Virus record (IMG/VR): IMGVR_UViG_2563366877_000003
Location: 1-41,474 of that record
Source of the DNA: a virus
Taxonomy: Duplodnaviria > Heunggongvirae > Uroviricota > Caudoviricetes
Length of the DNA: 41,474 nucleotides
Strand: one strand, 5' to 3'
Positions 29,090 through 30,867 of this stretch are shown here, piece after piece. Every line of letters begins with the position of its first letter. The stretch's first letter is position 1. A model generated the notes under the pieces. That model did no database searches, was not told the DNA's origin, and worked only from the letters and a program-made list of their open reading frames with translations. Position numbers and translations under genes: made by a program.

Positions 29090-29262
29090 TTCCTCGCACG
29101 ATTTCTTAGCCACCGGATATCCCACAGGTGAGCCGTGTAATTGAAGGTTTTTACGTCAGATTCTTTTGGAATTGGCTTGCGTTTATTTCTGGAGCGTTTC
29201 GTTGGAAGGTATTTGCAGTTTTCGCAGATTATGTCGGTGATACTTCGTCGCTGTCGCCTCAT
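29086..29262 (-). CDS. ninE: NinE
   Basis: Internal start [53 protein letters not shown] matches lambda NinE. Confidence 0.7.
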
Positions 29263-29786
29263 GCCGCTCTCCTGACGCCCTGCCCGATCGCCATCAATGC
29301 CGCTTTGGATACGGTAGTAAACATCCGTCGAGGACTGATGAACGGTCGCCAAATCAGCAGCATGGAGCCTTTGCTGTTTCCCTTCTTCTCCAACCCTGTC
29401 GATGGTTCGATAAAATTAATCCGTCCATCAGTGATAATGCGAACTTCGTCGACACTCTCCAGAGCCTTGCTGAACCATCCGACTGACATATCCTCTGGCA
29501 CAAGCATAACTACCGTCTGTCGCTGTTGTATGCACTGCTCAGCGGCTTTTTCCACCCACGGCCTGATATTGCTGTACGGTGGGTTATTCCAGATTGCACC
29601 GTGGCTTACCCACTCAGAATTGAGCGCGTCGTCGGCCTCAGTTAGCCAGTGAGCACACAGAGCATTTTTGTCGCTCGCTGCCGAATCCAGCCAGAATCCA
29701 AACTCAATATCCAGTGCATCAAAAAGCCAAAGCGGCGTTTGCCAGCAGTCCTTGTCGTGTGCTGGCGTATTTGATTTGATAGTCAT
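29259..29786 (-). CDS. DNA N6-adenine methyltransferase (phage Dam family)
   Basis: Catalytic NPPY motif (IWNNPPYSN); start at [25 protein letters not shown] with ATGA overlap to the upstream ORF. Confidence 0.8.
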
Positions 29787-30385
29787 GCAGCCCGATCTCC
29801 CCATCTCGCTTTCATTTTTTCATTTGCAAATCGCCAGAATCTTCCTTTGTGATATGAGCTTTCGCCATTACAGCAACGACTAATTGACGAACTATCAAAT
29901 CCTTCTCTGACAGCATCCATAGCTGCTTCATAATAAACCTCCTCCCCAGTTTTCATGTCAGTAGAAATAACAGCTTTACTGGCAGGATGGTCACCACTAA
30001 ATTTACCTAGCGATATAGGTATTCTTCCATTTTGTTTATATCCGTGTTTTGAGTTTTCAGAATGTGATACCCATTCAAGGTTATCAGCCCTATTGTCATC
30101 TCTTCGCCCATTTTTGTGATTAACTACCAAGCCATCACAGAACCCTGTACAGAATGCTTTCGCAACTATCCTGTGGGCGCTGTATTTCTTACCGTATACC
30201 TTTATTTGAAGATATCCTGTCGACTTGCACTTGAATGGTTTTACACTAGTGCCATTAATTATTTTCTTATATGGCCTCTGTCTGGTTGATGTTACTGTAA
30301 CTTCCCTCGTAATAGACCTAAAATTTCCTTTATTGCTAACCTGATAAAATGGAATCCCTTCGATATCTACCCAAACCTCAATCAT
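29783..30385 (-). CDS. HNH homing endonuclease (NUMOD4 N-terminus, HNH core)
   Basis: N-terminus EVWVDIEGIPFYQVSNKGNFRS (NUMOD4-like); HNH core VVNHKNGRRDDNRADNLEWVSHSEN; C-terminal HKGRFWRF motif. Last residues KARWGDRAA equal the recalled lambda NinB C-terminus. Confidence 0.8.
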   Translation of the reverse strand: MIEVWVDIEGIPFYQVSNKGNFRSITREVTVTSTRQRPYKKIINGTSVKPFKCKSTGYLQIKVYGKKYSAHRIVAKAFCTGFCDGLVVNHKNGRRDDNRADNLEWVSHSENSKHGYKQNGRIPISLGKFSGDHPASKAVISTDMKTGEEVYYEAAMDAVREGFDSSSISRCCNGESSYHKGRFWRFANEKMKARWGDRAA

Positions 30386-30794
30386 AATTCCTCCATTCGC
30401 TAAGATGAATTGAGTTCATGGCACAATATGCTTCTATGTAGTCCATTATTTCGGATATTTTTTTTACAGATAGAGTCGCCGTACTCTCTCTGATGTTTAT
30501 TAGCTCACCTTCTAACCCTGATATAATCTCAGGGTGCTGATTGGTTGCAATCTGCCAACCAGAAACGAATAACCCCTTCCAAAACTCAATATTTCTTGCT
30601 TTTCCATGATATGTAGCCTTCTTACTTATTTCAGATAGCATCGCGTGAAGGCGTGCATTTTGCCGAATGCTGCGGTTGCGTTCCTGAATGGTTACTACGA
30701 TTGGTTTGGTTGGGTCTGGAAGAATTTGCTGTACCGCGTGAATAGCGTTTTGCTGATGTGCTGGAGATCGAATTTCAAAGGTTAGTTTTTTCAT
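30378..30794 (-). CDS. ninB: NinB (Orf-family recombination mediator), mosaic allele
   Basis: From internal start MKKLTFEIRSPAHQQNAIHAVQQILPDPTKPIVVTIQERNRS (lambda NinB N-terminus); C-terminal two-thirds diverge. Confidence 0.85.
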   Translation of the reverse strand: MKKLTFEIRSPAHQQNAIHAVQQILPDPTKPIVVTIQERNRSIRQNARLHAMLSEISKKATYHGKARNIEFWKGLFVSGWQIATNQHPEIISGLEGELINIRESTATLSVKKISEIMDYIEAYCAMNSIHLSEWRNYD

Positions 30795-30867
30795 GACTTC
30801 CCTCTCCCCCAAATAAAAAGGCCTGCGATTACCAGCAGGCCTGTTATTAGCTCAGTGATGTAGATGG

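Follow-up and report, generated by a model that had tools for sequence, protein, structure and literature searches.

The locus examined here raises the question of how an endonuclease gene of a tailed phage came to terminate on the last codons of another gene, ninB. It belongs to the nin region of the virus record IMGVR_UViG_2563366877_000003, the whole 41,474-nucleotide (nt) stretch of which is called the window below and supplies the coordinates. Three genes follow one another on its minus strand, namely ninB (30378..30794; 138 amino acids), an open reading frame (ORF) coding for an HNH endonuclease (29783..30385; 200 amino acids) and a gene for a Dam-family N6-adenine methyltransferase (29259..29786; 175 amino acids). 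The original prediction, which was made from the sequence by itself, saw in this arrangement the footprint of a mobile endonuclease gene that had landed inside ninB, and further proposed that the methylase and the nuclease are functionally paired. The present analysis leads to an altered version of the first proposal: the locus is rather probably a mobile two-part cassette, composed of foreign ninB codons 43-138 and an I-HmuI-like HNH gene, which has replaced part of a lambda-type ninB by nuclease-driven homing.

The first step towards an answer is provided by the 3' end of the HNH ORF. Its product ends in KARWGDRAA, which is also the C-terminus of lambda NinB (J02459, 40644..41084), as the original prediction had it. 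The last 31 nt of the ORF are identical (31/31) to the last 31 nt of ninB in the HNH-free phages HK544, Sf101 and mEp043, the same identity recurs in several HNH-free lambda-like isolates with ninB followed by dam, and the identity with HNH-free phages extends unbroken into dam. A chance origin of the peptide match is ruled out by this nucleotide identity, continuous as it is with the downstream homology, and the segment at 29783..29813 (minus strand; K-A-R-W-G-D-R-A-A-stop) is a true homologue of ninB, a 3' remnant of a lambda-type gene which is fused in frame to the HNH ORF and likely serves as the right homology arm. The remnant keeps the GGGGAG ribosome-binding site and the ATGA restart used by the next gene. 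The right join in the window reads ...GAAAAAATG/AAAGCGAGATGG..., with a microhomology of at most 1-2 bases, and is an illegitimate in-frame join 31 nt ahead of the ninB stop, so that the HNH ORF terminates on the old ninB stop and both the ribosome-binding site and the ATGA coupling are preserved. The HNH homologues of Salmonella phage SEN22 and an Enterobacter phage end in RFADERMAA; therefore, the final ten codons in the window stand in for the usual last two or three of the family.

Inspection of the right end in other loci shows that the junction ATG/AAAGCG is constant whether dam, ninC, ninD or ninE follows. In SEN22 the stretch identical to the P22-type ninB end at this junction is at most 9 nt long (GCCGCATGA), while a metagenomic HNH homologue (P0015, locus L167) carries a 17-residue NinB-like tail, SDASRLEIEWATRWGKS. 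Additionally, the usual tails of the HNH proteins, ERMAA, EGRAA and KRRAA, resemble the ERWAA and ERFAA tails of HNH-free NinBs from the same subfamily. These resemblances, which extend over 4-5 residues, are suggestive of a clade whose members would always end on the resident ninB stop codon.

At the opposite end of the cassette, ninB codons 1-42 (30669..30794, minus strand), the lambda-type left homology arm, are identical to lambda at the protein level and differ from it in 2/126 nt, with a sharp divergence setting in after CGCAACCGCAGC at codon 42. The sharpness of this boundary marks only the end of homology and gives no cleavage position. Immediately before it lies a 55-nt block (ninB nt 72-126; window 30669-30723) which is near-identical across the compared lambda-type, P22-type, Stx-type and cassette-bearing ninB genes, shows only isolated single-base changes, is far more conserved than the remainder of the gene and stops exactly where the alleles diverge. 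Since the 55 nt adjoining the left junction are the same in all ninB types, a gradient of flank co-conversion is unreadable here. The comparison of nin regions that the original prediction had advised thus places the left junction at codon 42 and the right one 31 nt before the ninB stop. Its account of the upstream ninB as having a lambda-identical N-terminus, a different C-terminus and an 8-nt overlap with the HNH start (30378-30385) was likewise borne out. The two ORFs are in different frames and unfused, and a GGAGG Shine-Dalgarno element of the HNH ORF, as read from the sequence, lies within the final ninB codons (30390..30394, minus strand), 4 nt upstream of the ATG at 30385.

The ninB sequence beyond the left junction (codons 43-138 and the stop; 30378..30668, minus strand) is a foreign, "GLEGEF-type" allele, whose 96 codons specify a polypeptide with ~39% identity to lambda-type NinB and which completes a chimeric NinB with the full fold. 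The chimera matches the full-length NinB profile (PF05772, E=1.2e-40, residues 3-130 of 138) and shares 49% identity with lambda Orf across 134 aligned residues, stopping roughly 13 residues short of the point where lambda Orf ends. The ratio of nonsynonymous to synonymous differences (pN/pS) in the foreign segment is ~0.1, indicating purifying selection. Codons 43-138 are hence two thirds of a distinct and intact NinB allele and not the damage left by an insertion. A simple insertion truncating ninB was considered and is ruled out, given that this allele is intact and separate and is invariably accompanied by the HNH gene. The idea of an endonuclease gene landing in ninB therefore survives with regard to the footprint at the 3' end of the gene, and fails with regard to simple insertion, since codons 43-138 have been replaced as well.

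The linkage between the foreign segment and the HNH gene can be followed across several data sets. In the phage collection, the segment is found in 63 records at >=99% identity and in SEN22 at 85%, and the records holding it are those that also hold most of the HNH gene. Among 5426 complete E. coli genomes, a query with the foreign segment and the HNH core recovered 80 places in 77 genomes, and no genome was found with just one of the two halves. In total, the allele travels with the HNH gene in 63+2 phage records and at 80/80 of the E. coli places. The interior of the lambda-type ninB occurs at 1491 places in 1307 of the E. coli genomes, and the cassette (80 places) and the lambda-type ninB (1491 places) thus form a presence/absence polymorphism at one defined site. 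With regard to more distant relatives of the foreign segment, an HNH_3 gene overlaps the stop in 4/4 of those checked at 71-75% identity, and no such gene is present in phiEt88, in yong1 or in the three relatives checked at 56-62% identity. The foreign segment lacking the HNH gene was not found at >=64% identity in phages, E. coli genomes or the four checked database relatives; its HNH-free relatives are encountered only at <=62% identity.

Some individual loci depart from this arrangement in detail. The HNH genes behind two NinB relatives of 74-75% identity (L172 and L173) are shorter, at 182-183 amino acids, and have a Pfam HNH_3 match and no NUMOD4 match in the precomputed tables. In L099 and L104, NinB is truncated (...SVKKYPK-stop) by a frameshift at a run of eight A (A8) in the ninB coding strand (window 30448-30455), which could be either a sequencing error or real decay. 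Locus L111 (1512-1610, 2017-2508) contains a stray ninB 5' fragment ~600 nt upstream, and its cassette-linked ninB has a different N-terminus (MKCVKYHLTNESIRYNAIQYL...), likely unchimerised and foreign, whose identity to lambda-type ninB at the junction is limited to ~13 nt (ACGCAACCGCAGC) and which is possibly the native N-terminus of the foreign allele.

Whether this linked pair moves as a unit was addressed by comparing 28 cassette-bearing loci segment by segment with the window as the reference. The foreign ninB segment differs from the window at 0-4/283 nt and the HNH core (29814..30385, minus strand) at 0-13/572 nt, with one extra copy broken by IS5. The 5' part of ninB shows up to 16-17/126 differences, and 46 in one locus, and dam shows 3-29/524 or is missing altogether. 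The gene behind the cassette can be dam, ninC (APC_JM3.2, L104), ninD (L171, L103) or ninE (L106, L111), and in SEN22 the homologous cassette is followed by ninD. HNH-free counterparts are seen for these contexts, with ninB-dam in HK544, ninB-ninC in lambda, ninB-ninD in As1 and ninB-ninE in HK629. Further, between the window and SEN22 the proportion of synonymous sites that differ (pS) reaches 0.81 for the HNH gene and 0.71 for ninB codons 43-138, as against 0.14 for ninB codons 1-42, and the left boundary falls at the same nucleotide in both phages. By this measure the cassette is much older than its flanks, as would be predicted had it been transferred repeatedly into naive ninB genes of the lambda or P22 type.

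Degraded and recombined copies are also on record. In L113, from IMG/VR, a cassette with no other difference has its HNH ORF interrupted by an IS5-family transposase gene of ~1.2 kb (window about 30246-30249), and the E. coli HNH variants P0004, P0005 and P0007 are 97-98% identical up to ~residue 145, where a frameshift removes the C-terminal DNA-binding domain and the NinB tail. Both kinds of lesion look like the decay that would be expected of a selfish gene. The HNH proteins of the Enterobacter phage and SEN22 have nearly identical C-terminal halves and differing N-terminal halves, which suggests recombination within the HNH gene.

The encoded nuclease is of the I-HmuI type. The HNH ORF product has matches to NUMOD4 (E=1.4e-13) and HNH_3 (E=2.4e-11), and a single PDB entry matches it significantly in sequence, that of I-HmuI (1U3E; phmmer E=4e-14, query residues 55-186, ~29% identity), the intron-encoded HNH homing nickase of Bacillus phage SPO1. 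An AlphaFold 2 model based on 26 homologues (mean predicted local distance difference test score, pLDDT, 83) again has 1U3E as its only significant fold match in the PDB (E=3e-12, 190 aligned columns), with the borrowed tail at residues 191-200 modelled at low confidence. Residues N89, H90, N98, N102, N111 and H114 are invariant in the 26 homologues, and the region containing them aligns to the catalytic region of I-HmuI, with an HNH motif of the ββα-metal fold. Residues 137-186 align to the C-terminal domain of I-HmuI, the Pfam match to the corresponding NUMOD-like domain being below the cut-off (19.2 vs 27 bits). Hence, the protein has the domain order of I-HmuI, with the HNH catalytic domain ahead of a C-terminal, helix-turn-helix-like domain for DNA binding, the latter recognised by alignment and fold, and differs from it in being the product of a free-standing and not an intronic gene and in possessing an N-terminal NUMOD4 region as a further accessory DNA-binding module. 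The pN/pS of the HNH gene against the Salmonella homologue is ~0.16; in conjunction with the invariant HNH-motif residues, this indicates that the gene has been kept as a putatively active protein. In public records, the cassette HNH gene already carries an HNH or NUMOD4 endonuclease annotation.

A survey of the clade to which this nuclease belongs, drawing on loci from IMG/VR and one genome per species and delimited by a score of >=177 bits to the family profile (~>=39% identity), gave 60 loci. In 55/60 a NinB gene ends between -28 and +18 nt from the HNH start; of the rest, 4 have DUF1367 in the same slot and 1 is the IS5-disrupted copy. The NinB profile employed was built from these upstream ORFs together with lambda NinB, and Pfam therefore served as the independent check: among 18 distinct upstream proteins, it identified 15/18 as NinB and 2/18 as DUF1367. 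No NinB gene was present upstream in any of the 92 testable lower-scoring HNH_3 homologues (0/92). A scan of genome contigs returned mostly distant HNH_3 homologues without NinB and was of use only as a negative control. The HNH-linked NinBs span several subfamilies, and HNH-free NinB genes are far commoner. The best-supported reading overall is that the 3' end of ninB is the home of a free-standing homing-type endonuclease. HNH homologues of 63-66% identity located behind DUF1367 instead of ninB in the same genomic slot were observed in L005, L114, L116, L117 and L120. SEN22 (L004), in addition, has a second small HNH endonuclease gene between ninF and rusA (2530-2811) in the same nin region.

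The anatomy of the locus and its remnant, the linkage of allele and nuclease gene, the presence/absence polymorphism, the difference in age and the family of the protein are direct observations, and from the last of these and the population pattern we infer that cutting of HNH-free ninB by the nuclease would be the driver of the transfers. During co-infection, or upon the meeting of a phage with a prophage, the nuclease would nick or cut an HNH-free lambda-type ninB, to which a cassette-bearing ninB would be immune for want of the target sequence. Recombinational repair would then copy the cassette into the cut genome, with the left crossover in the ninB 5' block (~55 nt, nt 72-126) and the right one in the 31-nt remnant or beyond, and the linked ninB allele would hitch-hike, as happens in intronless homing or marker exclusion.

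Several observations weigh against this proposal. The literature found reports no cleavage site, nuclease activity or biased inheritance for the cassette. The residue preceding the catalytic His is an invariant Asn in the clade, where we take I-HmuI to have Asp, though the invariance implies that the Asn is probably functional. From base 7 onwards, the 31-nt remnant changes according to the gene that follows, and exchange on the right is therefore no plain crossover within a long stretch of homology. Moreover, the cassette occupies only ~5% of the lambda-family ninB loci in E. coli, a modest share if homing were efficient. This low frequency would be equally at home in the chief competing explanation, wherein the ninB-HNH block is an exchangeable nin module moved by general or phage-encoded homologous or short-homology recombination, and the HNH gene, not driving its own spread, could be a passenger in decay or serve another purpose, such as competition or defence. 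Indeed, the nin region is highly mosaic, its downstream genes swap exactly at GC(N)GCATGA boundaries, the ~55-nt block present in every compared ninB is an ordinary crossover site, and recombination of the Red/RecE type at short conserved gene boundaries could yield such a mosaic in the absence of any nuclease drive. Relaxed recombination among lambdoid phages is a subject of published work (PMC2327257, PMC3945230). Yet passive exchange leaves unexplained the strong purifying selection on a protein with a complete homing-endonuclease architecture, the foreign ninB segment that is never seen without the HNH gene, and the synonymous-saturated cassette beside a young left flank whose boundary coincides in E. 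coli and Salmonella. It is regarded as unlikely, though it is the rival to be taken most seriously.

The adjacency of the two genes might alternatively reflect function and not homing, if the HNH protein works with the upstream NinB/Orf mediator, the two separate genes being analogous to the NinB-like/HNH fusion nucleases that Gram-positive phages encode. The 55/60 clade loci with an adjoining NinB, set against 0/92 for the distant HNH_3 homologues, would accord with such a partnership, and there are precedents for the association of a NinB/Orf-family module with an HNH nuclease: Gp16 of Staphylococcus phage PhiNM1, a RecA-dependent nuclease with a NinB-like N-terminal domain fused to an HNH domain (PMC12817073), and the Orf-HNH fusions of the DUF968 proteins (PMC4118853). 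However, each of those proteins combines both domains in one chain and has a small zinc-finger HNH, whereas the window has two unfused ORFs in different frames and an HNH of the I-HmuI/NUMOD type with a DNA-binding domain of its own. Further, most NinB genes, including close relatives in the same subfamily, lack the HNH gene (1491 vs 80 places in E. coli), and homing endonucleases, too, typically stay with one host gene over long periods. The partnership is thus deemed improbable, and much less credit still can be given to the pairing of nuclease and methylase put forward in the original prediction, according to which Dam (PF05869, E=6.4e-65; NNPPYS, with the NPPY catalytic motif) would shield the phage DNA against attack by the HNH nuclease or against restriction by the host, the two being co-expressed by way of the ATGA. 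The ATGA is indeed common to the HNH ORF stop and the dam start (29783-29786), and the two genes adjoin each other with this overlap both in the window and in the majority of Stx2a phages. But the overlap and the ribosome-binding site belong to the ancestral ninB-dam junction, as seen in HNH-free HK544, whose Dam has 100% protein identity to that of the window. Conversely, dam is missing downstream of the cassette in 8/28 of the loci compared, the cassette is found without dam ahead of ninC, ninD or ninE, and the HNH homologues of other genera have unrelated genes downstream. The consistent co-occurrence of nuclease and methylase that is a mark of restriction-modification systems is therefore absent, and coupling of the two was rejected. 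On these comparisons, the methylase is a bystander, an ordinary nin-region gene of the recipient phage that lies outside the cassette. In one cassette-bearing prophage (L112), a ~540-nt insertion is found just inside the dam 5' end (between window 29761 and 29750).

Among the closest parallels are the homing endonucleases SegF, SegG and MobE of T-even phages, whose free-standing genes are propagated through intronless homing or marker exclusion. In both cases the endonuclease gene adjoins a conserved gene, is polymorphic in its presence between related phages and is accompanied by a hitch-hiking neighbouring allele. The window cassette differs in being carried by temperate lambdoid prophages and not virulent T4-like phages, in having as its co-traveller a whole divergent allele (39% identity) that makes a chimeric gene, and in the in-frame fusion of its endonuclease ORF to the last codons of the target gene. 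A comparison can also be made with Aeromonas phage Aeh1, whose nrdA harbours an HNH gene. A further analogue is the in-frame eaE-HNH fusion of Salmonella phage epsilon34 (PMC2629481). These resemble the window locus in that an HNH gene lies within the bounds of a phage gene and host-gene codons are fused to the endonuclease ORF. The window differs in that ninB has not been divided into two working parts; the upstream gene still encodes a complete NinB fold, and the nuclease has received only a 9-residue tail.

The surroundings of the cassette are those of a nin region. A terminator-like hairpin with a T-run, identical to lambda at that place and presumably lambda tR2, is located just upstream of ninB in the recipient flank (30819..30842, minus strand), and a gene for a DnaB-type helicase likewise lies upstream. 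The genes downstream of dam we take, by recognition of their translations, to be ninE, ninF, ninG, ninH and a phosphatase gene. The IMG/VR prophage contig L100 is 100% identical to the window across this region. TL-2011a (L001) and most Stx2a phages have ~740 nt with three small hypothetical ORFs between the hairpin and the ninB start, an insert that is absent from the window (its place being between 30802 and 30797).

No description of the cassette, the remnant or the NinB-linked clade was encountered in the literature found on ninB/HNH, the lambdoid nin region and intronless homing. In principle the cassette is an ordinary kind of selfish phage element and not a surprising one. Free-standing homing endonucleases are known mostly from virulent T4-like phages, and the locus offers a concrete candidate, amenable to genetics, for gene conversion driven by a homing endonuclease in temperate lambdoid phages, including the clinically relevant Stx2a prophages of O157:H7, O103 and O121. 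It accounts for a recurrent chimeric ninB allele and for a mis-annotated "NinB fragment", and cautions against reading the adjacency of nuclease and methylase in the nin region as a functional pair. It also points to a low-cost route of insertion, namely ending on the stop codon of the host gene, by virtue of which the downstream translational coupling survives. A bolder and improbable extension is that the cassette is a self-sufficient homing unit, in which the linked NinB would load RecA or Red-beta on the single-stranded DNA arising from the nick made by the nuclease itself. Were this so, the cassette would catalyse both the break and the repair by which it is copied, it would drive the mosaicism of the nin region, including that of the Stx2a phages, and the persistence with which an I-HmuI-like clade has stayed welded to NinB/Orf-family genes across proteobacterial phages would be explained. 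For specialists in phage evolution, the locus is of interest and lends itself to easy testing in lambda.

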